Shown here one piece after another: positions 12,849 through 36,800 of a stretch of 64,000 bases of DNA. A program made the translations under genes and the position numbers. Below the pieces are notes generated by a model, which made no database searches, was not told the DNA's origin, and saw only the letters and a program-made list of their open reading frames with translations. Origin of the DNA: Chloropicon primus (taxonomy: Eukaryota); assembly GCA_023205875.1 (NCBI GenBank), contig CP060761.1, positions 62,001-126,000 of the forward strand, written 5' to 3'. Positions within the stretch are counted from its first letter, which is position 1, and every line of letters begins with the position of its first letter.

Positions 12849-15800
12849 TCAATTTTGAGCAGAGTCTTTTTCGAGGGTCAGACCCCTTCCCTTGTTCATC
12901 TTGAACTTGCCAATGGCCTTCAGCTTGTTTCTGACTGCCAACCATTCTGGTTCGGCAGACTTGGCAGGCTTTTGGCTCGTGGACTTGGATGCCATTCTAG
13001 CAGTCTCAACGTGTCTCAGCTTGGAACGGGCCTGGTTGATGATAGACATGAAGTTGTTCTTGGCATCCATGCTCATCTTTCCGCTCAACAAGGCTCCCTG
13101 TTCGATCTTGTTCAAACTCTGCTTGAGCTGTGCGAGCTTCTCTGCGTTCATTTCTGCACCGGCAGTCTGCACGTTTCCTTCCACTTGAGAATCGACGAGA
13201 TCAGCATTCAAGTCTTGCCAAGTTTGCATCGCAACCTCAAGCATCTCGTTGTCGCCAGAGTGCTCAAGAACACACTCCGATATTTGCTCAAAGGATGCTT
13301 CGAAATCTGCACCAAGCTTTGACATAATCATCTCGAAACTCTCCTCGTGACCAATGTCCTTTCCTCCCGAACTTCCCGGGACCGTGCTGTACAGAGGGTT
13401 GCTGTACGCTGAACCGGATCCCGAGGCGTCGTGAGCGAGCAACTCGGTCTCCGAATCGCTTGCGTTGGGTGAGTCTGGAATTTCCACGTCGTCCGCAGTA
13501 TCAAACAAAGGATTCGACAAGAAAGACATTCTTCCACCAGAGTTCATGGCATTCGACACACCAGCAGTACTCTTCCTAGTCTTCCCAGAGGAAGCAAACA
13601 TAGGATTCATCAAGAGCATGCTTTGGTTCCTTCCCCCAAAGATGTTGGGTTGGTCTTGTCCGAGTGGTTTGTAAATGCTAGAATTCTGTGGCCTGTGTTC
13701 TCCCCTCTTTCTCTTCTGCCTGACGTACACGAAGGCAAGTCCCATCATGCAGCAGACCGCTGCACCGACGATGCCACCGACCATGACCATGGAAACGGAA
13801 GCAGTGGAAACCTCGCCCTCGGCGTCTCCGGTCTCGGACTCGAGCTTTCCGCCTTCCGTCTCCTCGACCTCGGAGGACGTCGTATCGCTTCCGTCGTGCG
13901 ACTGGCCATCTTCAGAGTCTTGTCCCTCGCCATCAGAGTTAGAATCTTCATCATCCGTCACAAGGCCAGACCCATCTGTCGAGTTCGAGGCTGGAGGTGG
14001 TGGCGGCGGCGACAGCTGCTCGCACCCGCTTGTGGTACAAGACTGGAAGTCCTGCGTGTAAGCACACTCCTTTCCGTTGTTTTCAGCTGCGCTGACGATG
14101 TCGTAGTATCTGCATCTAGTGTAGAGATCACTGTCAGAATCCAATTCACATTCACCGTACTCTGACCATTCTCCAACACAGTTGACAGGTTCACCACATC
14201 CATCAGAAGAGCACTTAATTTCATTGTGCTCGAAAGCGCACTTCTTGCCATTGTATCTGTCTTCAGAAATCATTTCAAACCTCTGGCACTGCATGTTCTT
14301 TCCGCTGCTTTCGTCATAAGAGCAAGTTGAGTAATCCTCCCAGACTCCCGCGCAGTCCACTGGCTGAGCGCAACCGTCGTTGGTGCACTGCTGGAAAGCG
14401 TCAACGTGAGGGCAAGCGTAACCATTGTGGGCCACTGGGATAGAGACCTTGTACAACCTGCACTTCTTGTTCTTGTGAGCGTCCTCGTCATACTCGCAAG
14501 CATCGAATTCATCCCAAGATCCAACACAGTCCACGGGCTGAGTGCAACCAGTTTCAGTGCACTGAACATACTCGTTTGCGTATGGGCAAGCATATCCGTT
14601 GTGAGCAGCAGAGCGAGCCACGGCATAGGTGCGGCACCTCTTGTTCTTGTGCTCAGATTCATCATGTTGGCACAATCCGTAATCTTCCCAAGATCCAACA
14701 CAATCCACGGGCTGAGAGCAGCCTCTAGTTGTGCACTGCTTGTAGGCATTGGCGTATGGGCAACCGTAACCGCTGTGAGCGGCATCTGTGCTGACAACAT
14801 AGTTCCTGCACCTCCTGTTCTTGTGATCATTAGAATCATGGAAGCACGCACCATACGATCCCCAGTCGCCAACGCAGTCGACAGGCTGAGAGCAACCCTC
14901 GGTGATGCAATCCACCTTGCCATTCTTGTGTGGGCATTGCTTTCCGTTCAAGTCTGCCTTGGTGGTCACAGCATATGTTCTGCAGCGCTCGTTCTTGTGG
15001 CCCGCAGCAACATGCGAGCAAGCGCCATAGATGGACCACTCTCCCTCGCAGTCCACGGGCTGGCCACAACCACCCTTGGTGCATTGCCTCAAGTTGTCCT
15101 CGTGTGGGCAAGCATAACCATTGTTCATGGCGACCTGGCTCACACCGTACACGCGGCAGCGCTCGTTCTTGTGGTCAGCCTCAACATATCCACAGGCATC
15201 ATAGTTGCCCCAAGATCCAACGCAGTCCACTGGCTGAGCGCAACCGTCGTTGGTGCACTGCTGGAAAGAGTTGGTGTATGGGCAAGCGTGTCCATTGTGG
15301 GCCGCTGGAACTGCGATCTTGTACAACCTGCACTTCTTGTTCTTGTGAGCGTCATCGTCATGCTCGCAAGAATCATACTGATCCCACGCTCCAACACAGT
15401 CCACTGGCTGAGAACAACCAGTGTCAGTGCACTGCTTGTGGTTGTTGTTGTATGGACATGTGTATCCGTTGTGGGCTGCAGAGCGTGTCACGGCATAGGT
15501 GCGGCACCTCTTGTTCTTGTGCTCAGATTCGTCATAATAGCATGTGCCATACTCCTCCCAAGAGCCCAAGCAGTCCACTGGCTGAGAGCAGCCCTCGGTC
15601 GTGCACTGCTTGTAGGCATTGGCGTATGGGCAACCGTAACCGTTGTGAGCACTGCTTGTACTGATGGCGTAGGTTCTGCATCTCTTGTTATGATGATTTT
15701 CGGTGTCATAAAAGCAAGTTGTGTAATCACCCCAGTCGCCAACACAGTCCACAGGCTGAGAGCATCCTGCCTTTGTGCAATCTTCGTGGTCGTGCACGTA

Positions 15801-18800
15801 CTCACACTGCTTGCCATTCTTTTCCGCCTCCACCTTAATGACATACTTCCTGCATTTGAAACTGTCGTGAGATTTTTCTCTGTACGAGCATTGACCATAA
15901 GGACCCCACTCTCCCTCGCAGTCCACGGGCTGGCCACAACCACCCTTGGTGCATTGCCTCAAGTTGTCCTCGTGTGGGCAAGCATAACCGTTGTTCATGG
16001 CGACCTGGCTCACACTGTACACGCGGCAACGCTCGTTCTCGTGACCTTCACCAACATAATGACAGGCATCATAATTGCCCCAAGATCCAACGCAGTCCAC
16101 TGGCTGAGCGCAACCGTCGTTGGTGCACTGCTGGAAAGAGTTGGTGTATGGGCAAGCGTGTCCATTGTGGGCCGCTGGAACTGCGATCTTGTACAACCTG
16201 CACTTCTTGTTCGTATGATCATCGTCGTGATGACCACAGAATGAATACTCATCCCATCCACCAACACAGTCCACGGGCTGAGTGCAACCAGTTTCAGTGC
16301 ACTGCTTGAAATTCTCCGTATATGCGCACTCGTAACCATTGTGAGCAGCAGAGCGTGTCACGGCATAGGTGCGGCACCTCTTGTTCTTGTGCTCAGATTC
16401 ATCATGTTGGCACAATCCGTAATCTTCCCAAGATCCAACGCAGTCCACGGGCTGAGAGCAACCCTCGGTCGTGCACTGCTTGTAGGCGTTGGCGTATGGG
16501 CAACCGAAACCGTTGTGAGCGGCATGGGTAGTGACCGCGTAGTTCCTGCACCTCCTGTTCTTGTGATCATTAGAATCATGGAAGCACGCACCATACGATC
16601 CCCAGTTACCAATGCAGTCGACAGGCTGAGAGCAACCCTCGGTGATGCAATCCACCTTGCCATTCTTGTGTGGGCATTGCTTTCCGTTCAAGTCTGCCTT
16701 GGTGGTCACAGCATATGTTCTGCAGCGCTCGTTCTTGTGGCCCGCAGCAACATGCGAGCAAGCGCCATAGATGGACCACTCTCCCTCGCAGTCCACGGGC
16801 TGGCCACAACCACCCTTGGTGCATTGCCTCAAGTTGTCCTCGTGTGGGCAAGCATAACCATTGTTCATGGCGACCTGGCTCACACTGTACACGCGGCAGC
16901 GCTCGTTCTTGTGGTCAGCCTCAACATATCCACAGGCATCATAGTTGCCCCAAGATCCAACGCAGTCCACTGGCTGAGCGCAACCGTCGTTGGTGCACTG
17001 CTGGAAAGAGTTGGTGTATGGGCAAGCGTGTCCATTGTGGGCCGCTGGAACTGCGATCTTGTACAACCTGCACTTCTTGTTCTTGTGAGCGTCATCGTCA
17101 TGCTCGCAAGAATCATACTGATCCCACGCTCCAACACAGTCCACGGGCTGGGAGCAACCAGTGTCAGTGCACTGCACGTAGCTATCCACATATGGACAAG
17201 AATATCCTCCATGCGCAGATGCCTTTGTAACAGTATAAGTCCTGCACTTCTTGTTCTTATGGTTTTCACCATCATAAAAGCATGTGCCATACTCCTCCCA
17301 AGATCCAACACAATCCACGGGCTGAGAGCAACCCTCGGTCGTGCACTGCTTGTAGGCATTGGCGTATGGGCAACCGAAACCGTTGTGAGCGGCGTTGGTG
17401 CTGACAACATAGTTCCTGCACCTCCTGTTCTTGTGGTCTGCGGTGTCGTGGTAGCACGTTCCGTAAGCGCCCCAGTCGCCAACGCAGTCGACAGGCTGAG
17501 AGCAACCCTCGGTGATGCAATCCACCTTGCCATTCTTGTGTGGGCATTGCTTTCCGTTCAAGTCTGCCTTGGTGGTCACAGCATATGTTCTGCAGCGCTC
17601 GTTCTTGTGGCCCGCAGCAACATGCGAGCAAGCGCCATAGATGGACCACTCTCCCTCGCAGTCCACGGGCTGGCCACAACCACCCTTGGTGCATTGCCTC
17701 AAGTTGTCCTCGTGTGGGCAAGCATAACCATTGTTCATGGCGACCTGGCTCACACCGTACACGCGGCAGCGCTCGTTCTCGTGGTCAGCCTCAACATATC
17801 CACAGGCATCATAGTTGCCCCAAGATCCAACGCAGTCCACTGGCTGAGCGCAACCGTCGTTGGTGCACTGCTGGAAAGAGTTGGTGTATGGGCAAGCGTG
17901 TCCATTGTGGGCCGCTGGGACAGAGACCTTGTACAACCTGCACTTCTTGTTCTTGTGAGTGTCCTTGTCATGCTCGCAAGAATCATACTGATCCCACGCT
18001 CCAACACAGTCCACGGGCTGGGAGCAACCAGCTTCAGTGCATTCCTTCTCATCGTTCTCGTGTGAACATTCAATTCCGTTGTGAGAAGACTCTAAAGAAA
18101 TTTTGTAGAGTCTGCACTTCTTGTTCTTGTGCTCCTCAGACTTGTAGTCACACATATCGTACTCTTCCCAAGCTCCGGCACAATCCACTGGCTGCGAGCA
18201 ACCAGTCAATGTGCATTGAAGAGTGTTGTCAGAATACGCACAAGCAAAACCATTGTGAGCAGCAGAGCGTGTCACGGCATAGGTGCGGCACCTCTTGTTC
18301 TTGTGCTCAGATTCATCATGTTGGCACAATCCGTAATCTTCCCAAGATCCAACGCAGTCCACGGGCTGAGAGCAACCCTCGGTCGTGCACTGCTTGTAGG
18401 CATTGGCATATGGGCAACCGAAACCGTTGTGAGCGGCGTTGGTGCTGACAACATAGTTCCTGCACCTCCTGTTCTTGTGGTCTGCGGTGTCGTGGTAGCA
18501 CGTTCCGTAAGCGCCCCAGTCGCCAACGCAGTCGACAGGCTGAGAGCAACCCTCGGTGATGCAATCCACCTTGCCATTCTTGTATGGGCATTGCTTTCCA
18601 TTCAAGTCTGCCTTGGTGGTCACAGCATATGTTCTGCAGCGCTCGTTCTTGTGGCCCGCAGCAACATGCGAGCAAGCGCCATAGATGGACCACTCTCCCT
18701 CGCAGTCCACGGGCTGGCCACAACCACCCTTGGTGCATTGCTTCAAGTTGTCCTCGTGTGGGCAAGCATAACCATTGTTCATGGCGACCTGGCTCACACC

Positions 18801-21800
18801 GTACACGCGGCAGCGCTCGTTCTTGTGGTCAGCCTCAACATATCCACAGGCATCATAGTTGCCCCAAGATCCAACGCAGTCCACTGGCTGAGCGCAACCG
18901 TCGTTGGTGCACTGCTGGAAAGAGTTGGTGTATGGGCAAGCGTGTCCATTGTGGGCCGCTGGAACTGCGATCTTGTACAACCTGCACTTCTTGTTCTTGT
19001 GAGCGTCATCGTCATGCTCGCAAGAATCATACTGATCCCACGCTCCAACACAGTCCACGGGCTGGGAGCAACCAGTGTCAGTGCACTGCACGTAGCTATC
19101 CACATATGGACAAGAATATCCTCCATGCGCAGATGCCTTTGTAACAGTATAAGTCCTGCACTTCTTGTTCTTATGGTTTTCACCATCATAAAAGCATGTG
19201 CCATACTCCTCCCAAGATCCAACACAATCCACGGGCTGAGAGCAACCCTCGGTCGTGCACTGCTTGTAGGCATTGGCATATGGGCAACCGAAACCGTTGT
19301 GAGCGGCGTTGGTGCTGACAACATAGTTCCTGCACCTCCTGTTCTTGTGGTCTGCGGTGTCGTGGTAGCACGTTCCGTAAGCGCCCCAGTCGCCAACGCA
19401 GTCGACAGGCTGAGAGCAACCCTCGGTGATGCAATCCACCTTGCCATTCTTGTGTGGGCATTGCTTTCCGTTCAAGTCTGCCTTGGTGGTCACAGCATAT
19501 GTTCTGCAGCGCTCGTTCTTGTGGCCCGCAGCAACATGCGAGCAAGCGCCATAGATGGACCACTCTCCCTCGCAGTCCACGGGCTGGCCACAACCACCCT
19601 TGGTGCATTGCCTCAAGTTGTCCTCGTGTGGGCAAGCATAACCATTGTTCATGGCGACCTGGCTCACACCGTACACGCGGCAGCGCTCGTTCTCGTGGTC
19701 AGCCTCAACATATCCACAGGCATCATAGTTGCCCCAAGATCCAACGCAGTCCACTGGCTGAGCGCAACCGTCGTTGGTGCACTGCTGGAAAGAGTTGGTG
19801 TATGGGCAAGCGTGTCCATTGTGGGCCGCTGGGACAGAGACCTTGTACAACCTGCACTTCTTGTTCTTGTGAGTGTCCTTGTCATGCTCGCAAGAATCAT
19901 ACTGATCCCACGCTCCAACACAGTCCACGGGCTGGGAGCAACCAGCTTCAGTGCATTCCTTCTCATCGTTCTCGTGTGAACATTCAATTCCGTTGTGAGA
20001 AGACTCTAAAGAAATTTTGTAGAGTCTGCACTTCTTGTTCTTGTGCTCCTCAGACTTGTAGTCACACATATCGTACTCTTCCCAAGCTCCGGCACAATCC
20101 ACTGGCTGCGAGCAACCAGTCAATGTGCATTGAAGAGTGTTGTCAGAATACGCACAAGCAAAACCATTGTGAGCAGCAGAGCGTGTCACGGCATAGGTGC
20201 GGCACCTCTTGTTCTTGTGCTCAGATTCATCATGTTGGCACAATCCGTAATCTTCCCAAGATCCAACGCAGTCCACGGGCTGAGAGCAACCCTCGGTCGT
20301 GCACTGCTTGTAGGCATTGGCATATGGGCAACCGAAACCGTTGTGAGCGGCGTTGGTGCTGACAACATAGTTCCTGCACCTCCTGTTCTTGTGGTCTGCG
20401 GTGTCGTGGTAGCACGTTCCGTAAGCGCCCCAGTCGCCAACGCAGTCGACAGGCTGAGAGCAACCCTCGGTGATGCAATCCACCTTGCCATTCTTGTATG
20501 GGCATTGCTTTCCATTCAAGTCTGCCTTGGTGGTCACAGCATATGTTCTGCAGCGCTCGTTCTTGTGGCCCGCAGCAACATGCGAGCAAGCGCCATAGAT
20601 GGACCACTCTCCCTCGCAGTCCACGGGCTGGCCACAACCACCCTTGGTGCATTGCTTCAAGTTGTCCTCGTGTGGGCAAGCATAACCATTGTTCATGGCG
20701 ACCTGGCTCACACCGTACACGCGGCAGCGCTCGTTCTTGTGGTCAGCCTCAACATATCCACAGGCATCATAGTTGCCCCAAGATCCAACGCAGTCCACTG
20801 GCTGAGCGCAACCGTCGTTGGTGCACTGCTGGAAAGAGTTGGTGTATGGGCAAGCGTGTCCATTGTGGGCCGCTGGAACTGCGATCTTGTACAACCTGCA
20901 CTTCTTGTTCTTGTGAGCGTCATCGTCATGCTCGCAAGAATCATACTGATCCCACGCTCCAACACAGTCCACGGGCTGGGAGCAACCAGTGTCAGTGCAC
21001 TGCACGTAGCTATCCACATATGGACAAGAATATCCTCCATGCGCAGATGCCTTTGTAACAGTATAAGTCCTGCACTTCTTGTTCTTATGGTTTTCACCAT
21101 CATAAAAGCATGTGCCATACTCCTCCCAAGATCCAACACAATCCACGGGCTGAGAGCAACCCTCGGTCGTGCACTGCTTGTAGGCATTGGCGTATGGGCA
21201 ACCGAAACCGTTGTGAGCGGCGTTGGTGCTGACAACATAGTTCCTGCACCTCCTGTTCTTGTGGTCTGCGGTGTCGTGGTAGCACGTTCCGTAAGCGCCC
21301 CAGTCGCCAACGCAGTCGACAGGCTGAGAGCAACCCTCGGTGATGCAATCCACCTTGCCATTCTTGTGTGGGCATTGCTTTCCGTTCAAGTCTGCCTTGG
21401 TGGTCACAGCATATGTTCTGCAGCGCTCGTTCTTGTGGCCCGCAGCAACATGCGAGCAAGCGCCATAGATGGACCACTCTCCCTCGCAGTCCACGGGCTG
21501 GCCACAACCACCCTTGGTGCATTGCCTCAAGTTGTCCTCGTGTGGGCAAGCATAACCATTGTTCATGGCGACCTGGCTCACACCGTACACGCGGCAGCGC
21601 TCGTTCTCGTGGTCAGCTTCCTCGTAATGACAGGCATCATAGTTGCCCCAAGATCCAACGCAGTCCACTGGCTGAGCGCAACCGTCGTTGGTGCACTGCT
21701 GGAAAGAGTTGGTGTATGGGCAAGCGTGTCCATTGTGGGCCGCTGGAACTGCGATCTTGTACAACCTGCACTTCTTGTTCTTGTGAGTGTCCTTGTCATG

Positions 21801-24800
21801 CTCGCAAGAATCATACTGATCCCACGCTCCAACACAGTCCACGGGCTGAATGCATCCCATCTTCGTGCACTGCACGTAGCTATCCACATATGGACAAGAA
21901 TATCCGTTGTGAGCAGCAGAAACGCTAATAGTGTAAGTCCTGCACTTCTTGTTCTTGTGCTCAGATACATCATAGGAGCAAGCGTTGTACTCTCCCCAAG
22001 CACCGGCACAGTCCACTGGCTGAGAGCAGCCAGACGTGGTGCACTGCTTGTAGGCATTGGCGTATGGGCAACCGAAACCGTTGTGAGCGGCATCTGTGCT
22101 GACAACATAGTTCCTGCACCTCCTGTTCTTGTGGTCTGCGGTGTCGTGGTAGCACGTTCCGTAAGCGCCCCAGTCGCCAACGCAGTCGACAGGCTGAGAG
22201 CAACCCTCGGTGATGCAATCCACCTTGCCATTCTTGTGTGGGCATTGCTTTCCGTTCAAGTCTGCCTTGGTGGTCACCACATAGGTTCTGCAGCGCTCGT
22301 TCTTGTGTGTGCCAGAGAGGAGAGCCCTTCTGGTGATTGGGTTATCCAGAGGTGGCAACATCTTGCCGTCGAGGTTGTCAGTCAAGTTGCCATTCACACC
22401 CTTGTTGAAGTCGATAGGCAAAACGTCTGGCAACTCTGGGGGCGCCACATCCGGAATGTCGGGCAAGACAGTCTTATCGCCAGCATAGTGACAGCTGGTG
22501 TAGACGGTCCACTCTCCCTCGCAGTCCACGGGCTGGCCACAACCACCCTTGGTGCATTGCTTCAAGTTGTCCTCGTGTGGGCAAGCATAACCATTGTTCA
22601 TGGCGACCTGGCTCACACCGTACACGCGGCAGCGCTCGTTCTCGTGGTCAGCCTCAACATATCCACAGGCATCATAGTTGCCCCAAGATCCAACGCAGTC
22701 CACTGGCTGAGCGCAACCGTCGTTGGTGCACTGCTGGAAAGAGTTGGTGTATGGGCAAGCGTGTCCATTGTGGGCCGCTGGGACGGAGACCTTGTACAAC
22801 CTGCACTTCTTGTTCTTGTGAGTGTCCTTGTCATGCTCGCAAGAATCATACTGATCCCACGCTCCAACACAGTCCACGGGCTGGGTACACAAAGATGGAG
22901 TGCACTGCACGTAGCTATCCACATATGGACAAGAATATCCGTTGTGAGCAGCAGAAACGCTAACAGTGTAAGTCCTGCACTTCTTGTTCTTGTGCTCAGA
23001 TGCATCATAGGAGCAAGCGTTGTACTCTCCCCAAGCACCGGCACAGTCCACGGGCTGAGAGCAACCAGACGTGGTGCACTGCTTGTAGGCATTGGCGTAT
23101 GGGCAACCGTAACCGTTGTGAGCGGCGTTGGTGCTGACAACATAGTTCCTGCACCTCCTGTTCTTGTGGTCTGCGGTGTCGTGGTAGCACGTTCCGTAAG
23201 CGCCCCAGTCGCCAACGCAGTCGACAGGCTGAGAGCAACCCTCGGTGATGCAATCCACCTTGCCATTCTTGTGTGGGCATTGCTTTCCGTTCAATTCTGC
23301 CTTTGTTGCAATTTCATAGGTTCTGCAACGCTGGTTTGAATGGAGTTTTCCCAGCAAGGACCTTCTTTGCATGTCGTTGAGGAACTCAACGAGCTCTTGC
23401 TCACCTGGAAGCACGTCAAGATTCTTAATAGCATCTTGCTCTTCCTTGGAAACGTTGAAATCCTGTAAAATTTCCAACAGCTCGGGCTCGTTCAGTGCCT
23501 TAGCTGGCAAAAGACCCTTTCCGCCGTAGGAACAATCACCGTAAAGAGTCCAATCGCCCTCGCAGTCCACGGGCTGGCCACATCCACCCTTGGTGCATTG
23601 AATTTGCTCATCCTTGAAAGGACAAGCAAATCCGTTGTACTTCACCTCAACCTCTACATGATAGACCCTACATCTCTGATTCGAATGACTATCAGCAACG
23701 TAGTCACAGGCATCATAGTTGCCCCAAGATCCAACGCAGTCCACTGGCTGAGCGCAACCGTCGTTGGTGCACTGCTGGAAAGAGTTGGTGTATGGGCAAG
23801 CGTGTCCATTGTGGGCCGCTGGGACGGAGACCTTGTACAACCTGCACTTCTTGTTCTTGTGAGTGTCCTTGTCATGCTCGCAAGAATCATACTGATCCCA
23901 CGCTCCAACACAGTCCACGGGCTGGGTACACAAAGATGGAGTGCACTGCACGTAGCTATCCACATATGGACAAGAATATCCGTTGTGAGCAGCAGAAACG
24001 CTAACAGTGTAAGTCCTGCACTTCTTGTTCTTGTGCTCAGATGCATCATAGGAGCAAGCGTTGTACTCTCCCCAAGCACCGGCACAGTCCACGGGCTGAG
24101 AGCAACCAGACGTGGTGCACTGCTTGTAGGCATTGGCGTATGGGCAACCGAAACCGTTGTGAGCGGCGTTGGTGCTGACAGCATAGTTCCTGCACCTCCT
24201 GTTCTTGTGGTCTGCGGTGTCGTGGTAGCACGTTCCGTAAGCGCCCCAGTCGCCAACGCAGTCGACAGGCTGAGAGCAACCCTCGGTGATGCAATCCACC
24301 TTGCCATTCTTGTGTGGGCATTGCTTTCCGTTCAAGTCTGCCTTGGTGGTCACCACATAGGTTCTGCAGCGCTCGTTCTTGTGTGTGCCAGAGAGGAGAG
24401 CCCTTCTGGTGATTGGGTTATCCAGAGGTGGCAACATCTTGCCGTCGAGGTTGTCAGTCAAGTTGCCATTCACACCCTTGTTGAAGTCGATAGGCAAAAC
24501 GTCTGGCAACTCTGGGGGCGCCACATCCGGAATGTCGGGCAAGACAGTCTTATCGCCAGCATAGTGACAGCTGGTGTAGACGGTCCACTCTCCCTCGCAG
24601 TCCACGGGCTGGCCACAACCGCTCTTGGTGCATTGCCTCAAGTTGTCCTCGTGTGGGCAAGCATAACCATTGTTCATGGCGACCTGGCTCACACTGTACA
24701 CGCGGCAGCGCTCGTTCTCGTGGTCAGCTTCCTCGTAATGACAGGCATCATAGTTGCCCCAAGATCCAACGCAGTCCACTGGCTGAGCGCAACCGTCGTT

Positions 24801-27800
24801 GGTGCACTGCTGGAAAGAGTTGGTGTATGGGCAAGCGTGTCCATTGTGGGCCGCTGGGACGGAGACCTTGTACAACCTGCACTTCTTGTTCTTGTGAGTG
24901 TCCTTGTCATGCTCGCAAGAATCATACTGATCCCACGCTCCAACACAGTCCACGGGCTGGGTACACAAAGATGGAGTGCACTGCACGTAGCTATCCACAT
25001 ATGGACAAGAATATCCGTTGTGAGCAGCAGAAACGCTAACAGTGTAAGTCCTGCACTTCTTGTTCTTGTGCTCAGATACATCATAGGAGCAAGCGTTGTA
25101 CTCTCCCCAAGCACCGGCACAGTCCACTGGCTGAGAGCAACCAGACGTGGTGCACTGCTTGTAGGCATTGGCGTATGGGCAACCGAAACCGTTGTGAGCG
25201 GCGTTGGTGCTGACAACATAGTTCCTGCACCTCCTGTTCTTGTGGTCTGCGGTGTCGTGGTAGCACGTTCCGTAAGCGCCCCAGTCGCCAACGCAGTCGA
25301 CAGGCTGAGAGCAACCCTCGGTGATGCAATCCACCTTGCCATTCTTGTGTGGGCATTGCTTTCCGTTCAAGTCTGCCTTGGTGGTCACCACATAGGTTCT
25401 GCAGCGCTCGTTCTTGTGTGTGCCAGAGAGGAGAGCCCTTCTGGTGATTGGGTTATCCAGAGGTGGCAACATCTTGCCGTCGAGGTTGTCAGTCAAGTTG
25501 CCATTCACACCCTTGTTGAAGTCGATAGGCAAAACGTCTGGCAACTCTGGGGGCGCCACATCCGGAATGTCGGGCAAGACAGTCTTATCGCCAGCATAGT
25601 GACAGCTGGTGTAGACGGTCCACTCTCCCTCGCAGTCCACGGGCTGGCCACAACCACCCTTGGTGCATTGCCTCAAGTTGTCCTCGTGTGGGCAAGCATA
25701 ACCATTGTTCATGGCGACCTGGCTCACACCGTACACGCGGCAGCGCTCGTTCTTGTGGTCAGCCTCAACATATCCACAGGCATCATAGTTGCCCCAAGAT
25801 CCAACGCAGTCCACTGGCTGAGCGCAACCGTCGTTGGTGCACTGCTGGAAAGAGTTGGTGTATGGGCAAGCGTGTCCATTGTGGGCCGCTGGGACAGAGA
25901 CCTTGTACAACCTGCACTTCTTGTTCTTGTGAGTGTCCTCATCGTGCTCGCAAGAATCATACTGATCCCACGCTCCAACACAGTCCACGGGCTGAGAGCA
26001 GTCGGTCTTTACGCATTGCTTATACAAATTAGTATATGGGCAATCGTAACCATTATGCTCTGGTTCACGGGTAACCATGTAATTGCGGCACCTCTTGTTG
26101 ACTTTCTTTACCGGATCATGCTTGCAGGTGCTGAAAGTAGACTCATCCCACATCCCGAGGCAGTCAACAGGCTGAGCGCAACCAAAGCTGGTGCATTGGA
26201 CAAAATCATTCTGATATGGACAGGCGTAACCATTGGCTTTGCTCTTCACAATCACAGCGTACGTCCGGCACTTCTTGTTCTTGTGCTCAGATGCATCATG
26301 CTTGCACGACCCGTATTCCTCCCAAGACCCAACGCAGTCCACTGGCTGAGAGCAACCCTCGGTCGTGCACTGCTTGTAGGCATTGGCGTATGGGCAACCG
26401 AAACCGTTGTGAGCGGCGTTGGTGCTGACAACATAGTTCCTGCACCTCCTGTTCTTGTGGTCTGCGGTGTCGTGGTAGCACGTTCCGTAAGCGCCCCAGT
26501 CGCCAACGCAGTCGACAGGCTGAGAGCAACCCTCGGTGATGCAATCCACCTTGCCATTCTTGTGTGGGCATTGCTTTCCGTTCAAGTCTGCCTTGGTGGT
26601 CACCACATAGGTTCTGCAGCGCTCGTTCTTGTGTGTGCCAGAGAGGAGAGCCCTTCTGGTGATTGGGTTATCCAGAGGTGGCAACATCTTGCCGTCGAGG
26701 TTGTCAGTCAAGTTGCCATTCACACCCTTGTTGAAGTCGATAGGCAAAACGTCTGGCAACTCTGGGGGCGCCACATCCGGAATGTCGGGCAAGACAGTCT
26801 TATCGCCAGCATAGTGACAGCTGGTGTAGACGGTCCACTCTCCCTCGCAGTCCACGGGCTGGCCACAACCGCTCTTGGTGCATTGCTTCAAGTTGTCCTC
26901 GTGTGGGCAAGCATAACCATTGTTCATGGCGACCTGGCTCACACCGTACACGCGGCAGCGCTCGTTCTCGTGGTCAGCTTCCTCGTAATGACAGGCATCA
27001 TAGTTGCCCCAAGATCCAACGCAGTCCACTGGCTGGGTGCACAAAGCAGTAGTGCATTGAACATATTCGTGAACATATGGGCAGGCGAATCCGTTGTTGT
27101 CAGCAGCCCTTTCAACCAAGTAAGTTCTGCACTTCTTGTTCTTGTGAGTGTCCTTATCATGCTTGCAAGAATCATACTCTGAAAATGCTCCAACACAGTC
27201 CACTGGCTGAGAGCAGCCAGACGTGGTGCACTGCTTGTAGGCATTGGCGTATGGGCAACCGAAACCGTTGTGAGCGGCGTTGGTGCTGACAACATAGTTC
27301 CTGCACCTCCTGTTCTTGTGGTCTGCGGTGTCGTGGTAGCACGTTCCGTAAGCGCCCCAGTCGCCAACGCAGTCGACAGGCTGAGAGCAACCCTCGGTGA
27401 TGCAATCCACCTTGCCATTCTTGTGTGGGCATTGCTTTCCGTTCAAGTCTGCCTTGGTGGTCACCACATAGGTTCTGCAGCGGTGATTCTTGTGTGTGCC
27501 AGAGAGGAGAGCCCTTCTGGTGATTGGGTTATCCAGAGGTGGCAACATCTTGCCGTCGAGGTTGTCAGTCAAGTTGCCATCCACACCCTTGTTGAAGTCG
27601 ATAGGCAAAACGTCTGGCAACTCTGGGGACGCCACATCCGGAATGTCGGGCAAGCCCGGCAAGACAGTCTTATCGCCAGCATAGTGACAGCTGGTGTAGA
27701 CGGTCCACTCTCCCTCGCAGTCCACGGGCTGGCCACAACCGCTCTTGGTGCATTGCCTCAAGTTGTCCTCGTGTGGGCAAGCATAACCATTGTTCATGGA

Positions 27801-30800
27801 AATCTGGCTCACACTGTACACGCGGCAGCGCTCGTTCTCGTGGTCAGCCTCAACATATCCACAGGCATCATAGTTGCCCCAAGATCCAACGCAGTCCACT
27901 GGCTGAGCGCAACCGTCGTTGGTGCACTGCTGGAAAGAGTTGGTGTATGGGCAAGCGTGTCCATTGTGGGCCGCTGGGACGGAGACCTTGTACAACCTGC
28001 ACTTCTTGTTCTTGTGAGTGTCCTTGTCATGCTCGCAAGAATCATACTGATCCCACGCTCCAACACAGTCCACGGGCTGGGCACAGCCATCTTTTGTGCA
28101 CTGTTTGTAACTGTTGGGGAAGGAGCACGTATGTCCATTGTTTTGGTTCGGAATGCTAATGGAATAGATTCTGCACCTGGTATTGGACTTTGTGGTTGAC
28201 GTGTAAGCACAGGAGTCATAGTTGCCCCAAGATCCAACACAATCGATGGGTTGCGCACACCCAGAAACAGTGCACTGCATGTAAGCATTCGAGTACGGAC
28301 AAGTGTATCCGTCGTTGGATGACTCACGCGTTACGATATAAGATCTGCACTTCTTGTTCTGATGGATCGATTTGTCATGCTTACATGTCCCATACTCTTG
28401 CCAAGCACCAAGGCAATCCACTGGCTGAGAGCAACCTGACGTGGTGCACTGCTTGTAGGCATTGGCGTATGGGCAACCGAAACCGTTGTGAGCGGCGTTG
28501 GTGCTGACAACATAGTTCCTGCACCTCCTGTTCTTGTGGTCTGCGGTGTCGTGGTAGCACGTTCCGTAAGCGCCCCAGTCGCCAACGCAGTCGACAGGCT
28601 GAGAGCAACCCTCGGTGATACATTGCGTTGCCCCATTATCAAATGAACACGACTTTCCACTCAGCTCAGCAGGTGTGGTCACCACATAGGTTCTGCAGCG
28701 CTCGTTCTTGTGTGTGCCAGAGAGGAGAGCCCTTCTGGTGATTGGGTTATCCAGAGGTGGCAACATCTTGCCGTCGAGGTTGTCAGTCAAGTTGCCATTC
28801 ACACCCTTGTTGAAGTCGATAGGCAAAACGTCTGGCAACTCTGGGGGCGCCACATCCGGAATGTCGGGCAAGACAGTCTTATCGCCAGCATAGTGACAGC
28901 TGGTGTAGACGGTCCACTCTCCCTCGCAGTCCACGGGCTGGCCACAACCACCCTTGGTGCATTGCTTCAAGTTGTCCTCGTGTGGGCAAGCATAACCATT
29001 GTTCATGGCGACCTGGCTCACACCGTACACGCGGCAGCGCTCGTTCTCGTGGTCAGCTTCCTCGTAATGACAGGCATCATAGTTGCCCCAAGATCCAACG
29101 CAGTCCACTGGCTGAGCGCAACCGTCGTTGGTGCACTGCTGGAAAGAGTTGGTGTATGGGCAAGCGTGTCCATTGTGGGCCGCTGGGACGGAGACCTTGT
29201 ACAACCTGCACTTCTTGTTCTTGTGAGTGTCCTTGTCATGCTCGCAAGAATCATACTGATCCCACGCTCCAACACAGTCCACGGGCTGAGAACAGCCATC
29301 TTTCTTGCACTGTTCAAAATTGTTGGGGAAGGAGCAGGTGTATCCATTATTGCTCGAAGGTCTTTCGACATGATACTTTCTGCACATTTTGTTGATGTGA
29401 GGGAACTCGTCATGCTGACAATGAGAATAGCCAGACCAGCCTCCAAGACAGTCCACTGGTTGAGCGCACCCACTCACTGTACATTGCTTGAAAGTGTTCT
29501 CGTAAGCGCAAGCAAAGCCATTGTTTGCAGCATTGACTGCAACCTGGTACTTTCTGCACCTCTTGTTCTTGTGGTCCTTTCCGTCGTGGTAACAGGAAGC
29601 GTAAGCTCCCCAGGATCCAACACAATCTGTGGGCTGAGCACATCCCAAAACGGTGCAGGATTCAAAGTTGTTGTTGAAGGGGCAGCCAAGACCACCATCC
29701 TTGGCGGTCACACTGACCTTGTAAACTTTGCATCTCCTGTTCTTGTGGTCACCACTGTCATGGTGGCAAGAGTCGTAGGCACCCCAAGACCCAACGCAGT
29801 CCACTGGCTGGTTGCACCCTTGCTCAGTGCACTGCTTGAAGTTGTTGCTGAAAGGACAAGCGTAACCATTGTGGTTTGCATTCACACTGATAGTGTAGAC
29901 TCTGCAGCGCTCGTTCTTGTGGCCATCGCCAAGCAAGGACCTTCTCCTGTCTTGGGTCAAGTCGAAGTCCGGGAAGTCATCCTTTTCCTCCAATTTGGCA
30001 TCTCCGTCGCACATGAACGTCGAAGGATTCTGGGCACAATACTCTGCCACCGTCAAACCAGCTTCGCATGCAAGGCACTGCGCCGTCATTGCCTTGCAGC
30101 ACATTTTAGGTGGCAAGGAAGAATCCTTTCCTTTCGACTCCACATAATTGCAAGAAGAGTAAGCACCCCAGGAGCCAACACAGTCCACAGGCTGAGAGCA
30201 ACCAGACGTGGTGCACTGCTTGAACATGTTGGTGTATGGGCATCCGTAACCGTTTTGGGCAGCGTTGGTTGCGATCTTGTAGAGCCTGCACCTCCTGTTC
30301 TTGTGGTCCTTGGAATCATGGAAGCAAGCACCATAAGCGTCCCAAGCTCCGACACAGTCCACAGGCTGTGAGCAGCCAGACGTGGTGCACTGCTTGTACA
30401 TGTTGGTGTATGGGCACCCATATCCGTTGTGAGCGGCGTTGGTGCTGTACTCGTAGTTCCTGCATCTCTTGTTCTTGTGGTCCTTTCCATCATGGTAGCA
30501 CGATCCGTAAGCACCCCAAGATCCAACGCAGTCCACTGGCTGAGAGCAGCCAGACGTGGTGCACTGCTTGTAGGCATTGGCATATGGGCAACCGAAACCG
30601 TTGTGAGCGGCGTTGGTGCTGACAACATAGTTCCTGCACCTCCTGTTCTTGTGGTCTGCGGTGTCGTGGTAGCACGTTCCGTAAGCGCCCCAGTCGCCAA
30701 CGCAGTCGACAGGCTGAGAGCAACCCTCGGTGATGCAATCCACCTTGCCATTCTTGTGTGGGCATTGCTTTCCGTTCAAGTCTGCCTTGGTGGTCACCAC

Positions 30801-33800
30801 ATAGGTTCTGCAGCGCTCGTTCTTGTGTGTGCCAGAGAGGAGAGCCCTTCTGGTGATTGGGTTATCCAGAGGTGGCAACATCTTGCCGTCGAGGTTGTCA
30901 GTCAAGTTGCCATTCACACCCTTGTTGAAGTCGATAGGCAAAACGTCTGGCAACTCTGGGGGCGCCACATCCGGAATGTCGGGCAAGACAGTCTTATCGC
31001 CAGCATAGTGACAGCTGGTGTAGACGGTCCACTCTCCCTCGCAGTCCACGGGCTGGCCACAACCGCTCTTGGTGCATTGCCTCAAGTTGTCCTCGTGTGG
31101 GCAAGCATAACCATTGTTCATGGCGACCTGGCTCACACTGTACACGCGGCAGCGCTCGTTCTCGTGGTCAGCTTCCTCGTAATGACAGGCATCATAGTTG
31201 CCCCAAGATCCAACGCAGTCCACCGGTTGGATGCACCCCGAGGTTGTGCACGACATCTTTCCAGCTGAGTAAGGACATCCGTGCCCATTTTGAGCAGCCG
31301 GAACAACAATCTTGTAGTTTTTGCACCTGATGTTGGTGTGCTCATCCTTGTCATACTTGCAAGAACCGTAACTTCCCCATTGTCCGGCACAGTTAACAGG
31401 CTGACCGCATCCTTGCACTGTACAAGATTCGTAGTTTTCGCTGAAGGGGCACTGGTAACCACTGTGATCCGATTTCCTGCTGATCTTGTAGTACCTGCAC
31501 CTCTTATTCTTGTGGTTTTTGTCGTCGTACTCGCACGTTCCCCAAAAACCCCATGCCCCAACGCAATCAACTGGTTGGACGCATCCGTTTGCAGTGCAGG
31601 ACTTGTACTTATTTGCATAAGCACACCCGTAACCGTTATACGTCGATGGGCTGGATACCTTGAATTCTTTGCATCTCTTGTTCTTGTGGTCTTTCGAATC
31701 GTAAAAGCAAGCCGCATAAGCACCAAATTCTCCTACGCAGTCCGCAGGCTGCGAGCAACCGTCCTTGGTGCAAGTCTTGTGGTTATGTTCAGTTGGACAT
31801 TGGTAACCATTAGAAGTTGCTGGCTGAACGATTTTGTACGTTTTGCACCGAACATTGACATGCTCATCTTGCTTGTGGGCGCACTGTCCATAGCTAGTCC
31901 ATGCGCCTGCGCAATCCACGGGCTGAACACAGCCTAACACAGTACAAGATTCTGCTTTGTCGGCATAAGGACAGCCTTTTCCATCGTGTGCTGGCGCAGA
32001 AGATATTTTGTAGTATCTGCAGCGCTTGTTCTTGTGACCGTCTTTTTCGTAAATGCAGTTGCCATAACTTTCCCATCCACCAACACAATCACTGGGTTGC
32101 ATGCAACCAGCATTCGTGCAGGATTCCTTGTTTTGAGGGTGAGGGCAGGCAAAACCATTGAATGCTGCCGCAGTCGTAATCTTGTACTTTTTGCACTTGG
32201 TGTTCTGATGTTTGTCTTGCACATAATTACAAGAGCCGTAAGCATCCCAAGATCCAACGCAGTCCACTGGCTGGGAGCAACCCGTCTTGGTGCAGGACAC
32301 GAACCCGTCGGCATAAGGACAGTTGTACCCGTCAAAAGAACTCTTTCTGTCGACCTTGTACGTTCTGCAGCGCTCGTTCTTATGGTCATTACCCAGCAAG
32401 GACCTCCTGTCTTGGGTCAAGTCGAAGTCCGGGAAGTCATCCTGTTCCACATCCTTCACAGCGTTCTTGCCATCAAGGACCACCAACAATGGGTTTGGAT
32501 CTGGAACCTGAAATCCAGCATAGGAGCAGGAGGTGTATGCACCCCAGGAGCCAAGGCAGTCAACAGGCTGGTTGCAGCCGGACAAGGTGCAGGATTCGTA
32601 CATGTTGGTGTATGGGCATCCGTAACCGTTGTGGGCAGCGTGGGTGCTGTACTTGTAGAGCCTGCACCTTCTGTTCTTGTGGTCCTTGGAGTCGTGCTTG
32701 CATGCGCCATATGGAGCCCAAGCACCAGCACAGTCCACTGGCTGAGAGCAACCTTGTGTTGTACAAGACTTGTAGCCAGCAGTGTGGGGACAACTGTAAC
32801 CGTTGTTTGCAGCATTGACTGCAACCTGGTACTTTCTGCACCTCTTGTTCTTGTGGTCCTTTCCGTCGTGGTAACAGGAAGCGTAAGCTCCCCAGGATCC
32901 AACACAATCTGTGGGCTGAGCACATCCCAAAACGGTGCAGGATTCAAAGTTGTTGTTGAAGGGGCAGCCAAGACCACCATCCTTGGCGGTCACACTGACC
33001 TTGTAAACTTTGCATCTCCTGTTCTTGTGGTCACCACTGTCATGGTGGCAAGAGTCGTAGGCACCCCAAGACCCAACGCAGTCCACTGGCTGGTTGCACC
33101 CTTGCTCAGTGCACTGCTTGAAGTTGTTGCTGAAAGGACAAGCGTAACCATTGTGGTTTGCATTCACACTGATAGTGTAGACTCTGCAGCGCTCGTTCTT
33201 GTGGCCATCGCCAAGCAAGGACCTTCTCCTGTCTTGGGTCAAGTCGAAGTCCGGGAAGTCATCCTTTTCCTTCTTCAAGACTTCTTCGCCATCAACGATC
33301 TTCAAAGGTTTCGCGGGCAGAACTGGCATCTGCGATCCGATGTAAGCGCAGGAAGAGTAAGCACCCCAGGAGCCAACACAGTCCACAGGCTGAGAGCAAC
33401 CAGAAGTGGTGCACTGCTTGTACATGTTGGTGAATGGGCATCCGTAACCGTTGTGAGCGGCGTTGGTGCTGTACTTGTAGAGCCTGCACCTCCTGTTCTT
33501 GTGGTCCTTGGAATCATGGAAGCAAGCCGCATAGGAACCCCAAGCACCAGCGCAGTCCACAGGCTGAGAGCAACCAGAAGTGGTGCACTGCTCAAAGTTG
33601 TTGGTGAATGGACATCCATAACCATTGCTGGCGGCGTTGGTCGTGTACTTGTACTTCCTGCACCTCCTGTTCTTGTGGTCTGAGCCATCATGGTAGCACG
33701 ATCCGTAAGCACTCCAAGCACCAGCACAGTCCAAAGGCTGAGAGCAGCCAGACTGAGTGCACTGGTTGTACATGTTGGTGTATGGACAGCCCTTACCGTT

Positions 33801-36800
33801 GTGAGCAACGTTGGTGCTGACAACATAGTTCCTACATCTCTTGTTCTTGTGATCGCTGTTGTCATGGAAGCAAGAGCCGTAAGCACCAAACCCTCCTGCG
33901 CAATTAACAGGCTGGGCACAGCCTTGGACAATGCATTGCATCGTACCTTCCTTGCTTGAGCACTGTTTGCCGTTCAAGTCTGCCTTGGTGGTGTACTTGT
34001 AGGTCCTGCAACGCTCGTTCTTGTGACCTGAAGAAACGTACTTACAGCTACCGTAGCCAGTCCACTCTCCCTCGCAGTCCACGGGCTGGCCGCAGCCACC
34101 CTTGGTGCAATGGCGAAGCTTGTTCGCGTGTGGGCAAGCATAACCATTGTTCAATGCAACCTGAGTCACAGTGTACACGCGGCAGCGCTCGTTCTCGTGG
34201 TCCTTAGAATCATAGTGGCAAGGGCCATAAGCACCCCAGGAGCCAACACAGTCCACAGGCTGAGAGCAACCAGAAGTGGTGCACTGCTCAAAGTTGTTGG
34301 TGAATGGGCATCCATAACCGTTGTGAGCGGCGCTCTTGGTGTACTTGTAGTTCCTGCACCTCCTGTTCTTGTGGTCAGACGCGGTATGCTTACAGGATCC
34401 GTAGGAACCCCAAGCACCAGCGCAGTCCACAGGCTGAGAGCAACCAGACTGAGTGCACTGAATGTAGTTGTTGGCATATGGGCAGCCATTTCCATTGTGG
34501 GCAGCGTTCGTAGTGACCTTGTAAGTTCTGCACTTCTTGTTCTTGTGCGTCGCACCATCGTGGTAGCAAGACCCGTAAGCACCCCAGGAGCCAACACAGT
34601 CCACAGGCTGGGCACAGCCAGACGTGGTGCATGACTTGTACATGTTGGTGTATGGGCACTCGTATCCGTTGTGCGCAGGATTTCTTGTCACCACATAAAG
34701 CCTGCAACGTTTGTTACTGTTTCCACTGAGCAAGGATCTTCTGTCTTCCCTCCACTCGTTAAAACCAGTAGCATCATCGTCAACCGTCTTTATGGACTCA
34801 ACACCAGATCCGCCACCGATGCTGCCGCCACCACTGTTTCCGGAGTTTCCGGTGGGTCCACCTTTGATTGCCCCTGTAGCCGAGCATGGACCATAGGAAT
34901 TCCAGGTTCCAAGACAGTCCACGGGTTGAGAGCAGCCTCCGGTAGTGCATTGGTTGTATCCTTGGCTGTATGGACACCCGCCACCTCCGTTGGCAGCATT
35001 TGTAGCAATGCTGTATTTCCTGCAGCGCTTGTTCTTGTGATCACTGTTGTCGTGACTGCAAGCACCATAAGCCCCGAAGCCTCCCGCGCAATTTACGGGC
35101 TGGGCACAGCCTTGGGTCGTGCAAAACTTGTGGTTGTGTGTGTACGGACAGCTGTATCCGTTGTGAGCAGAATTCTTGCTTATCTTGTAGAACCTGCACC
35201 GCTTCTGGCTTCCTCCTGAGAGTGAGCAGGATCCATAAGCACCCCACGATCCTACGCAGTCCACAGGCTGGGAGCAGCCACTGGTTGTGCAGGACTTGTA
35301 CATGTTGCTGTAAGGGCACCCATAGCCATTGCTGGCGGCGTTGGTTGTCACCTTGTAGTACTTGCACCTCTTGTTCTTGTGGTCTGCACCATCGTGGTAG
35401 CAAGACCCATAAGCGCCCCAAGCACCAGCGCAGTCCACAGGCTGAGAGCCACAGCCAGACGTGGTGCACTGCTTGTAGTTGTTGCTGTACGGGCATCCAT
35501 AACCGTTGTGAGCAGCGCTCTTGCTGTACTTGTAGTACCTGCACCTCTTGTTCTTATGATCCTTGGAATCATGGAAGCAGGAACCGTATGCTTGCCAATA
35601 ACCAGCGCAGTCCACAGGCTGTGAGCAGCCAGAGGTGGTACACTGCTTGTAGTTGAAGCTGAAAGCGCATCCATAGCCGTTGCTGGAAGCTTGGGTGCTG
35701 TACTTGTAGTACCTGCACCTCTCGTTCTTGTGGCTCGCACTCACATGGTAGCAAGCTCCATAGGAACCCCAATAACCTGAACAGTCAACTGGCTGAGAGC
35801 AACCAGAGGTGGTACACTGCTCGTAGTTGTTGGTGTATGGGCATCCGTAACCGTTGTGAGCTGGATTTTTCGTGTACTTGTACTTCCTGCACCGACTGTT
35901 CTTGTGCCCGGAGGAATGCTTGCAAGATCCATAAGCACCCCAAGCACCAGCGCAGTCCACAGGCTGAGAGCAACCAGACTGAGTGCACTGCTTGTAGTTG
36001 TTGCTGTATGGGCATTGAGACCCACCATGCGAGGCGCTCTTGCTGTGCTTGTAGTACCTGCACCTCTTGTTCTTGTGGTCAGAACCATCGTGGTAGCAAG
36101 CCGCATAGGAACCCCAGGAGCCAACACAGTTCACAGGCTGAGAGCACCCAGACGAAGTGCACTGCTTGTAGTTGTTGGCGTATGGACAGCCTTGCCCACC
36201 GTGGGCAGCATTCTTGCTGATCTTGTAGAACCTGCATCGAGTGTTCGACGAAATCTTTAGCAGAGACCTCCTATCTTCCCTCCAATCCCCACGATCGCTG
36301 TTGTCGGTCGCTCCACCGCATGACCCATACGAACCCCACGAACCAACGCAGTTCACGGGCTGAGAGCAACCAGAAGTGGTGCACTGCTGATAGTAGTTGC
36401 TGTATGGGCACCCAGCGCCGTTGCTGGCGGCGTTGGTGGTGATCTTGTAGGTTCTGCACCTCCTGTTCGTTGAACCGCTCTTGTGGCAACCTCCATAGGC
36501 ACCCCAACTTCCGGCACAGTTCACAGGCTGAGAGCAACCACTCGTCGTGCAGGATTGGTAGTAGTTGGAGTAAGGACACCCGCTACCTCCGTGAGCCGCG
36601 GCCCTGGTGATCTTGTACTTCCTGCACCTCTTGTTCTGAGAGCCAGACTTGTGGCAACCTCCATAGCTGCCCCAACTACCGGCACAGTTCACAGGCTGAG
36701 TACAACCGCTGGTGGTACAGGACTGCTGGCCATTGCTGGCTCCACAGCCGGAACCACCGTTGGAAGGGTGGGTGGTGTACCTGTAGGTCTTGCACTTTCT

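Follow-up and report, generated by a model that had tools for sequence, protein, structure and literature searches.

The stretch of DNA analysed here, referred to as the window, comprises 64,000 nucleotides of the genome of the green alga Chloropicon primus (contig CP060761.1 of assembly GCA_023205875.1, positions 62,001 to 126,000 of the forward strand). On its minus strand lies a giant gene for a type I membrane protein, in which an ectodomain of spondin-type TSP1 repeats is followed by a stalk, a single transmembrane helix and a cytoplasmic tail that carries three NPxF/Y motifs, a WH2-like motif and a basic helix close to its end (Table 1). The protein probably works like an adhesion receptor with an NPxY-type tail, yet it is not a member of the integrin, SibA, LDLR or TRAP families. 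The following paragraphs describe the topology of the protein, the conservation and predicted structure of the tail, and the mechanisms that these features may serve.

Hydropathy analysis of the giant open reading frame (ORF) revealed only two hydrophobic segments, the N-terminal one and that at 13722-13787, and since the latter is the sole internal segment, the tail motifs are cytoplasmic, provided that the protein is of type I. The original prediction is supported as far as it describes a cytoplasmic tail that bears three NPxF/Y motifs; the tail comes after this segment and belongs to a single-pass protein with TSP1 repeats. All tail peptides share one minus-strand frame; the positions given for NPMF (13596-13607), NPLF (13503-13514), NPLY (13389-13400) and the first helical peptide (MDAKNN...LRHVET, 13002-13070, minus strand) are exact, and the second helical peptide, PEWLAVRNKLKAIG, was located at 12909-12950 on the minus strand, against a claimed position of approximately 12907-12951. 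Within the ectodomain, the TSP1 units open with C-x-G-x-[WFY], 99 of the 122 spacings between them measure 58 amino acids (aa), and the 123 units hold 746 Cys, at six Cys per unit. The Pfam scan covered the first and the last 1,000 aa, the middle being judged by the repeat pattern only, and the spondin-type TSP1 family PF19028 (TSP1_spondin) was matched by both the last (E 8e-35) and the first (E 2e-12) of these portions, with scores of 119 and 48 bits against a curated cut-off of 41. No vWA or integrin domain was detected in the 2,000 of 7,960 ectodomain aa scanned, nor in the whole of the homologues P0030 and P0022; TSP1_spondin was the sole domain matched in all of these.

Table 1. Features of the giant gene and its product, in window coordinates
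Feature	Position	Strand	Basis or conservation
Single-frame ORF, type I membrane protein, 8,274 aa	12849..37673	minus	intron-free, no break in frame
Hydrophobic N-terminal segment, likely signal peptide, aa ~5-33	37575..37661	minus	hydropathy
Spondin-type TSP1 array, ~123 units, ends approximate	14020..37510	minus	Pfam PF19028 and repeat pattern
Stretch with RRxL[LQ] motifs, giant ORF aa 51-5115	22300-37530	minus	pattern count
Stalk, Pro-rich, then acidic Ser/Gly-rich	13794..14018	minus	sequence
Transmembrane helix, then basic stop-transfer run RQKRKR	13722..13787	minus	hydropathy
Cytoplasmic tail, 290 aa	13721-12852	minus	C-terminal of transmembrane helix
NPMF, first NPxF motif, in predicted disordered region	13596..13607	minus	kept in 10/10 tail types
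NPLF, second NPxF motif	13503..13514	minus	kept in 9/10 tail types
YSNPLY, third motif, full [FYW]xNPx[FY] form	13389..13406 (NPLY 13389-13400)	minus	9/9 tail types
Predicted up-down four-helix bundle, tail aa 129-247	12981..13337	minus	two AlphaFold models
Helix 3 core KQSLNKIEQ, most conserved part of folded domain	13098..13124	minus	pN 0.082
WH2-like motif K-x6-I-x6-LRHV, helix 4 of predicted bundle	13008..13061	minus	AlphaFold models; 13/13 types; pN 0.18
Basic amphipathic 1-8-14 helix (W260, L267, F273), likely Ca2+/calmodulin-binding site, second 'WH2' of the original prediction	12903..12944	minus	profile match, pattern, charge

Homologues of the tail were collected from a set of 5.8 billion sequences, from a metagenome scan in which four loci (L001-L004) were taken from 111 candidates, and from a profile search of 1.84 billion representatives that returned 13 matches. 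The resulting conservation set consists of 14 distinct tail types, including that of the window, with identity down to 25-27%, and motif counts per type cover only the types that span the motif in question. The sole named member of the family is the C. primus hypothetical protein QDZ25627.1 (P0030), the tail of which is 27% identical. Two sequences with tails that depart from the family sequence midway (P0023 and P0027) were dropped from the counts, and P0034 (E 1.9e-5), a repeat protein matched via stretches resembling 'SFLS.P.F', was excluded from them as well. The downstream neighbour of the giant gene also lies beside the gene in L001 and L002, and in L002 the next neighbour does too; L001 and L002 are likely orthologues because they have this downstream gene order in common with the window.

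The motif NPx[FY] occurs three times in the 8,274 aa of the giant protein, and all three occurrences lie in the tail. Three such motifs were obtained in none of 200,000 shuffles of the tail (mean 0.03), and the 13 other ORFs of the window (8,319 aa) contain none. The 10 tail types have 28 intact motifs between them, each with L, M, F, Y or W two positions before the Asn, and in the AlphaFold2 model of the tail all three motifs sit in coil with a low predicted local distance difference test score (pLDDT). Non-conservation in homologues had been named among the findings that would speak against the original prediction; conservation was found instead, both for the three NPxF/Y motifs (Table 1) and for the WH2-like motif. 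The three sites are very probably adaptor-binding motifs.

Selective constraint over the tail was estimated by comparing the window with L001-L004, for which synonymous sites are near saturation (proportion of synonymous differences, pS, 0.60-0.84). The proportion of nonsynonymous differences (pN) is lowest in the NPxF/Y cores, at 0.057, followed by helix 3 (0.082), helix 4 (0.18), the last helix (0.21), helices 1-2 (0.34), the remainder of the disordered half (0.39) and the linker (0.61). The WH2-like pattern K-x6-[IL]-x6-LR-x-V and the last helix are each kept in 13 of 13 types; K221, R232, L235, R236 and V238 are invariant in all 14 aligned rows, and the invariant polar or basic residues of helices 3-4 are N204, E207, Q208, K221, R232 and R236.

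According to AlphaFold2, the first half of the tail is disordered, a helical bundle follows, and the last helix stands apart. The model of the whole tail, built on a 6-row alignment, has a mean pLDDT of 55 and a predicted template modelling score (pTM) of 0.36, with low-confidence coil over aa 1-128 and then five helices; a second model of the helical part only, built on a 14-row alignment (pLDDT 61, pTM 0.51), agrees with it. Helices 3-4 reach a pLDDT of 71-80 in the two models, and in both the last helix is separate from the bundle, after the variable linker. Residues ~126-250 of both models superpose on four-helix bundles over 115-125 residues with a root-mean-square deviation (rmsd) of 2.3-2.7 A. 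Out of 48,161 chains, the first model fits talin R2 best (Z 12.4 at an rmsd of 2.4 A, with 120 residues aligned), on a par with a designed maquette (11.7), YtfE (11.7) and talin R13 (11.5), and the second model matches helices of Tweety best (14.6 and 13.3), followed by talin R2 (12.7) level with designed bundles. Over both models, the talin matches (R2, Z 12.4-12.7; R13, Z 11.5-11.6) have an rmsd of 2.4-3.3 A over 118-120 residues at 7-12% identity. These predictions support the presence of a bundle in the tail and indicate no specific family. No I/LWEQ or talin Pfam domain was matched in the tail or in the homologues scanned; a Foldseek search with the tail model returned nothing at E<=0.001; the ESM Atlas gave no usable match for the helical domain or for aa 188-280, which indicates neither novelty nor absence; and no WH2-actin structure appears in the structural-match lists of either model, by which that family is not excluded. 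Other matches were set aside, namely the Pfam families SH3BP5, Cob_adeno_trans, UME, spectrin-like and DUF7380, all below cut-offs and taken as generic helix likeness, and the profile match to the Kluyveromyces lactis chain KLLA0E05809p (5t58_B, E 0.028), which is weak and was put down to coiled-coil likeness.

The first helical peptide had been proposed as a WH2 motif. Passages of PMC8102491 describe such a motif as an amphipathic helix with an LKKV motif after it, which is disordered before it binds actin and has A, S, Q, D or E in front of the conserved Ile. Part of this proposal stood: the segment is helical in both models, its hydrophobic moment is 0.39-0.54 in 7 of 7 rows, and it ends with LR[HSKRN]V in 13 of 13 types, among which four distant ones have LRKV or LRRV. 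In the window protein, LRHV is the only instance of L[RK][KRHPS][VT]. A helix followed by an LKKV-type pattern arises in 0.13% of 50,000 shuffles and in no control ORF, a figure that is optimistic, as the pattern was written after the motif had been seen. Other parts of the proposal did not stand. The residue before the conserved Ile, counting the Ile of INQA, is I, V, L or M in 13 of 13 types, and if the preceding Ile is taken instead, Ser stands before it in the window and the fit becomes poorer in the other types. The Pfam scan suggested earlier found no WH2 domain, and no WH2 match was obtained in Pfam or PDB at E<=10, whether with motif alignments of 5 and 9 rows, with the tail or with six homologues; this null result is weak, because the scan had no positive control, HMMER filters drop weak matches and a short divergent WH2 can escape detection. 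In addition, both models, modest as their pTM is (0.36 and 0.51), predict the motif to be a helix of the bundle, and on a helical wheel F224, I227, I228, A231, L235 and V238 fall on one face, as a continuous bundle helix requires. The stronger conservation of helix 3 than of helix 4 goes beyond what a free WH2 would need. Complex prediction of tail aa 211-250 with conventional actin (L016) gave 0.02, 0.63 and 0.02 in three runs, which used no alignments and included no folded controls, and was weighed neither way; ten actins from giant-virus contigs were too divergent for use as the partner. The motif is not classed as WH2 here. Binding of actin by the bundle domain in some mode is somewhat less likely than not, and binding of G-actin by helix 4 in the WH2 mode, whether free or cryptic, is rather unlikely and would need helix 4 to leave the bundle.

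The second peptide had likewise been proposed as a WH2 motif, an assignment that is not supported, since its end reads LKAI, LRAI, LRSI, LKTV, MKAV or LKAV across 13 types, without an LKKV-type motif, and it fits a 1-8-14 calmodulin-binding helix better. The strict form of this pattern, [FILVW]x6[FAILVW]x5[FILVW] (PMC7795363, Table 1 of that paper), is present in 11 of 13 types, the other two having Met at anchor 8 or 14, and the net charge of the helix is +4 to +7 in all 13. The calmodulin reading was set down before the PDB profile search, in which a 5-row profile of the helix obtained three matches at E<=10 among 177,635 sequences. The top two of these are calmodulin-binding peptides of calcineurin A (2r28_C, E 0.25; 2jzi_B, E 0.29), with VRNKLKAIGK in the window against IRNKIRAIGK in calcineurin. 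A likeness of this helix to the dimerisation helix of talin was not borne out by the same search. Judged on pattern, charge and profile match, the last helix probably binds Ca2+/calmodulin.

The reader of the NPxF/Y motifs can be considered in light of domains that are available in the green lineage. In LDLR, megalin and integrins, NPXY/NPXF sequences are ligands of PTB domains, as stated in parts of PMC7759532. Passages of PMC1434745 name KCBP, a minus-end kinesin regulated by calmodulin, as the one Arabidopsis protein with FERM, and mention a MyTH4/band 4.1 kinesin-14 in Chlamydomonas, and it is because of these two points that the FERM domain of KCBP is put forward, by analogy, as a candidate reader. 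Genes for actin, Arp2/3 subunits, profilin, calmodulin, myosin and clathrin are listed for C. primus in supplement entries of PMC6731263.

An integrin-style anchor is the reading that we prefer, although for the chain as a whole it is held tentatively, with a confidence somewhat below the halfway mark. The TSP1 ectodomain would adhere to a surface or a partner cell, the NPxF/Y sites would recruit an adaptor with a PTB or FERM fold to sort the receptor or to couple force, the conserved polar and basic face of helices 3-4 in the bundle would bind a cytoskeletal partner, most probably actin, and Ca2+/calmodulin on the last helix would act as a switch that gates the coupling.

Several points weigh against this anchor. 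Every partner in it, for all of its elements, is one that we infer. The second NPxF site of C. primus P0030 reads NPLG, and in P0044, a variant of the P0002 type, the third motif has become TPLY and is thus lost. Both tail models are modest, in scores as in alignment depth, and because the talin matches tie with designed bundles and Tweety, the fold is uninformative on actin. With regard to the last helix, the calcineurin match (E 0.25) extends over 10 residues and is not significant alone, and it is absent when a 154-position domain profile or P0033 alone is used; the pattern W-x6-hydrophobic-x5-hydrophobic arises in 7.7% of shuffles and five times in the control ORFs, which makes it weak alone, and its strict form fails in 2 of 13 types. 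Turning to possible partners, the origin of talin is placed in Amorphea in the relevant passages of PMC12686525, and no mention of KCBP, MyTH4 or a FERM domain was found in the portion of the C. primus supplements of PMC6731263 that was searched.

Among the alternatives, the one that fares best, unlikely though it is, holds that helix 4 is a cryptic WH2 motif, buried in a talin-rod-like bundle and freed by force on the ectodomain or by calmodulin binding next to it, so that actin would be recruited only under load. Talin bundles contain cryptic helices. The pattern is kept in 13 of 13 types with five residues invariant in all 14 rows, talin R2 is the top match of the first model and the third of the second, and the calmodulin-like helix comes after a variable linker; nevertheless, the talin matches are level with generic bundles, L235 and V238 align with the buried face along the helix, so that bundle packing alone accounts for the hydrophobic residues, and the position before the conserved Ile departs from WH2. 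An all-in-one 'integrin plus talin' that arose independently in a green alga, with an adhesive ectodomain, NPxF/Y sites and a bundle opened by force or calmodulin to expose the WH2 helix and recruit actin under load, would go a step beyond the anchor and is equally unlikely.

Coupling to microtubules or cilia without actin is slightly less probable again, and would make the protein an adhesin of some hidden stage, flagellate or gamete, in which NPxF docks the KCBP FERM domain or intraflagellar transport (IFT) adaptors and calmodulin releases the contact. Chloropicon has a nearly full set of flagellar genes together with meiosis genes, while its vegetative cells are non-motile and without flagella, as described in parts of PMC6731263. 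In Chlamydomonas, flagellar surface motility depends on Ca2+, and KCBP was at one time suggested as the motor behind it, although the same passages of PMC3679542 assign the gliding force to IFT dynein, not to KCBP. The calmodulin regulation and FERM domain of KCBP (PMC1434745, in part) would suit a tail with a likely calmodulin site, yet KCBP is missing from the searched supplements named above (PMC6731263), and the WH2-like pattern is left unexplained.

The two remaining alternatives are both very improbable. To our knowledge, PTB-type clathrin adaptors are not known from green algae, and this counts against a role in sorting only. On that view, the NPxF/Y motifs would direct the endocytosis or recycling of an LDLR/megalin-like capture receptor, and the bundle would serve oligomerisation or folding and have no part in cytoskeletal contact. 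The full form of the third motif in 9 of 9 types, the generic fold, the clathrin of C. primus (PMC6731263, in part) and the resemblance of three motifs on a giant Cys-rich repeat receptor to megalin, with its NPXY-Dab2 endocytosis (PMC7759532, in part), would all be accommodated, whereas the six invariant polar and basic residues of helices 3-4 suggest a binding face for a conserved partner and the WH2-like and calmodulin-like motifs would have no explanation. A tandem of two free, disordered WH2 motifs that contacts G-actin directly and either nucleates filaments at the receptor or keeps them there would suit the conserved helix and LR[HSKRN]V end of the first motif, in keeping with the definition of WH2 in passages of PMC8102491, as well as the amphipathic last helix, but the latter resembles a calcineurin calmodulin site and lacks an LKKV-type motif, the former is predicted inside a bundle, where a free WH2 would be disordered, and has a hydrophobic residue before its Ile in place of A, S, Q, D or E, no WH2 profile was matched (a weak point, as a short divergent WH2 can be missed), and the stronger conservation of helix 3 is left unexplained.

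Several known single-pass receptors resemble the window protein in design. Integrin beta tails and SibA of Dictyostelium belong, like the window protein, to single-pass adhesion-type receptors with repeated cytoplasmic NPxY/F motifs, SibA having two NPXY motifs that are thought to bind talin (PMC12686525, in part). The window protein differs from them in that no vWA or integrin domain was detected in the parts scanned, and in a tail of 290 aa with three motifs, mostly ending in Phe, a predicted folded domain of its own and a likely calmodulin helix. LDLR and megalin (LRP2) share with it a Cys-rich repeat ectodomain, giant in size, and several NPxY-type motifs, one of them of the form [FY]xNPx[FY], but the repeats of the window protein are of the spondin-type TSP1 kind rather than LDLa, EGF or beta-propeller units. 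We know of no counterpart in LDLR or megalin of the folded domain of the tail. Apicomplexan TRAP and MIC2 have a TSP1 ectodomain, a single membrane pass and a proposed actin link, with vWA outside and tails that are short and acidic with a near-terminal Trp. Compared with these, the TSP1 repeats and the single pass are common to both, whereas the tail in the window is long, with a basic helix at its end and NPxF/Y motifs. The integrin/TRAP-like design put forward in the original prediction is partly supported: the receptor has an NPxF/Y tail, its likeness to TRAP is limited to the TSP1 repeats, and its direct coupling to actin is a possibility only.

Individual elements of the tail can be compared in the same way. 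In WH2 motifs of the WASP/WAVE/Spire/Cobl type (PF02205), an amphipathic helix is followed by L-R-x-V, as in the window motif, which differs from them in the hydrophobic residue before its Ile, its predicted burial in a bundle and the lack of a profile match. Set against the common WH2 form, the window motif has no Gly closing the helix and one extra spacer residue. Calmodulin helices of the calcineurin A and MLCK type (1-14, 1-8-14) are basic and amphipathic with W...L...F anchors, as is the last helix of the window protein, although the latter candidate ends a receptor tail and does not lie in an enzyme. The talin rod domains R2, R3 and R13 are up-down bundles of similar size, for which the fold alone is common (7-12% identity, with ties to unrelated bundles).

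Within the literature searched, the tail family is undescribed. A search for Chloropicon together with thrombospondin returned nothing, and a search for transmembrane WH2 proteins of green algae with actin returned nothing on the subject by title or abstract. Neither the main text of PMC12301720 nor the searched supplements of PMC12301720 and PMC6731263 contain the term 'spondin'; the family is unmentioned in the text and supplement of PMC12301720, and PMC4574192 had no matches either. As adhesion based on NPxY has been tied to talin (in Amorphea; PMC12686525, in part), constrained motifs of this kind in a green alga imply an unknown NPxF/Y reader in the green lineage, for which the tail could serve as bait, with the KCBP FERM domain as a candidate. 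The tail would also define an undescribed folded domain, apparently restricted to Chloropicon, with a likely calcium switch, and the protein might mark a hidden stage of adhesion, feeding or mating in an abundant picoalga of which just the non-motile spheres are known. If the WH2-like helix were indeed cryptic and released by load, the receptor would possess a built-in mechanosensitive recruiter of actin.

Sequencing reads and homologues suggest that several paralogues exist in which the outer parts are homogenised and the tails are kept distinct. In DNA run X1, possibly the source of the window itself, the stalk and membrane helix (13705-14075) lie on a single contig, and a contig at the joints differs in sequence throughout the tail. 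In run X4, guessed to be RNA, a contig has the window stalk with 3 differences in 378 letters and then a diverged tail; its loose end, read by hand, encodes a tail of the P0003/L003 type. Between P0002 and L003, identity is 87% over stalk and membrane helix and 54% over the tail. Since stalk and membrane helix are thus common to copies with different tails (13705-14075; L003:573-1151; P0002), gene conversion between paralogues is likely; for L003 and P0002, chimeric metagenome assembly could mimic it. In a tree of 12 rows, from which three near-duplicates were left out, L003, P0018 and P0035 group apart and P0029, P0033, P0032 and P0030 form a distant clade; the tree carries warnings of long branches. 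No contig over the tail or 5' end of the window copy was present in two runs that were guessed to be RNA, and these were not used as evidence.

The ectodomain has further peculiarities. Fifteen RRxL[LQ] motifs, mostly RRSLL or RRALL, terminate acidic loops inserted in TSP1 units, and they are found in homologues as well; we take them to resemble cleavage motifs of site-1 protease (SKI-1/S1P type), at which cuts would presumably leave pieces held together by disulphides. The region 14300-29000 of the window contains long exact internal duplications, with 86 distinct units among 122 and at most seven identical copies, and the repeat count is given as assembled. Full-length-looking homologues span 1,155-2,522 aa, assembly collapse being perhaps part of this variation. 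At approximately 37200-37450 (minus strand), a low-complexity insert rich in Tyr, Ser and Pro, with repeats of the YVAP and YNSRY type, interrupts the first TSP1 unit, and the P0005 type has this insert too.

Downstream of the giant gene, the regions 8073-11030 and ~11200-12100 (minus strand) hold a short intron-split gene and a gene for a protein with leucine-rich repeats (LRR) and a coiled coil. The former is kept beside the giant gene in L001 and L002, and the LRR protein in L002; we presume that the first resembles RER1 and the second the centriole protein LRRCC1/VFL1. Further genes in the window include one for a 2,153-aa protein with LamG-like, filamin/TIG, DUF2341 and Kelch domains (202-6663, minus strand), and genes for an ATG16-like WD40 protein (39380-41026, minus strand) and a RUN-PX-Rubicon-homology protein (50022-53753, plus strand), an autophagy or LC3-associated phagocytosis (LAP)-type pair within 10 kb of one another. 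A 1,614-aa ORF at 42048-46892 (plus strand) has no Pfam match and a GC skew of +0.26 to +0.33; shorter minus-strand ORFs overlap it, and either strand may be coding.

The search for actins also returned intron-free, eukaryote-like actin genes, 82-91% identical to conventional actin, at five loci (L017, L030, L032, L036 and L041) on contigs of 6-243 kb that are labelled as cyanobacteria, myxobacteria and Rickettsiales, which may be transfers or the outcome of mis-binning. Most other matches in this search are short contaminant contigs. Ten contigs from viral collections (L005-L014), mostly giant-virus bins, carry divergent actins, six of which were aligned and are 68-72% identical to conventional actin.

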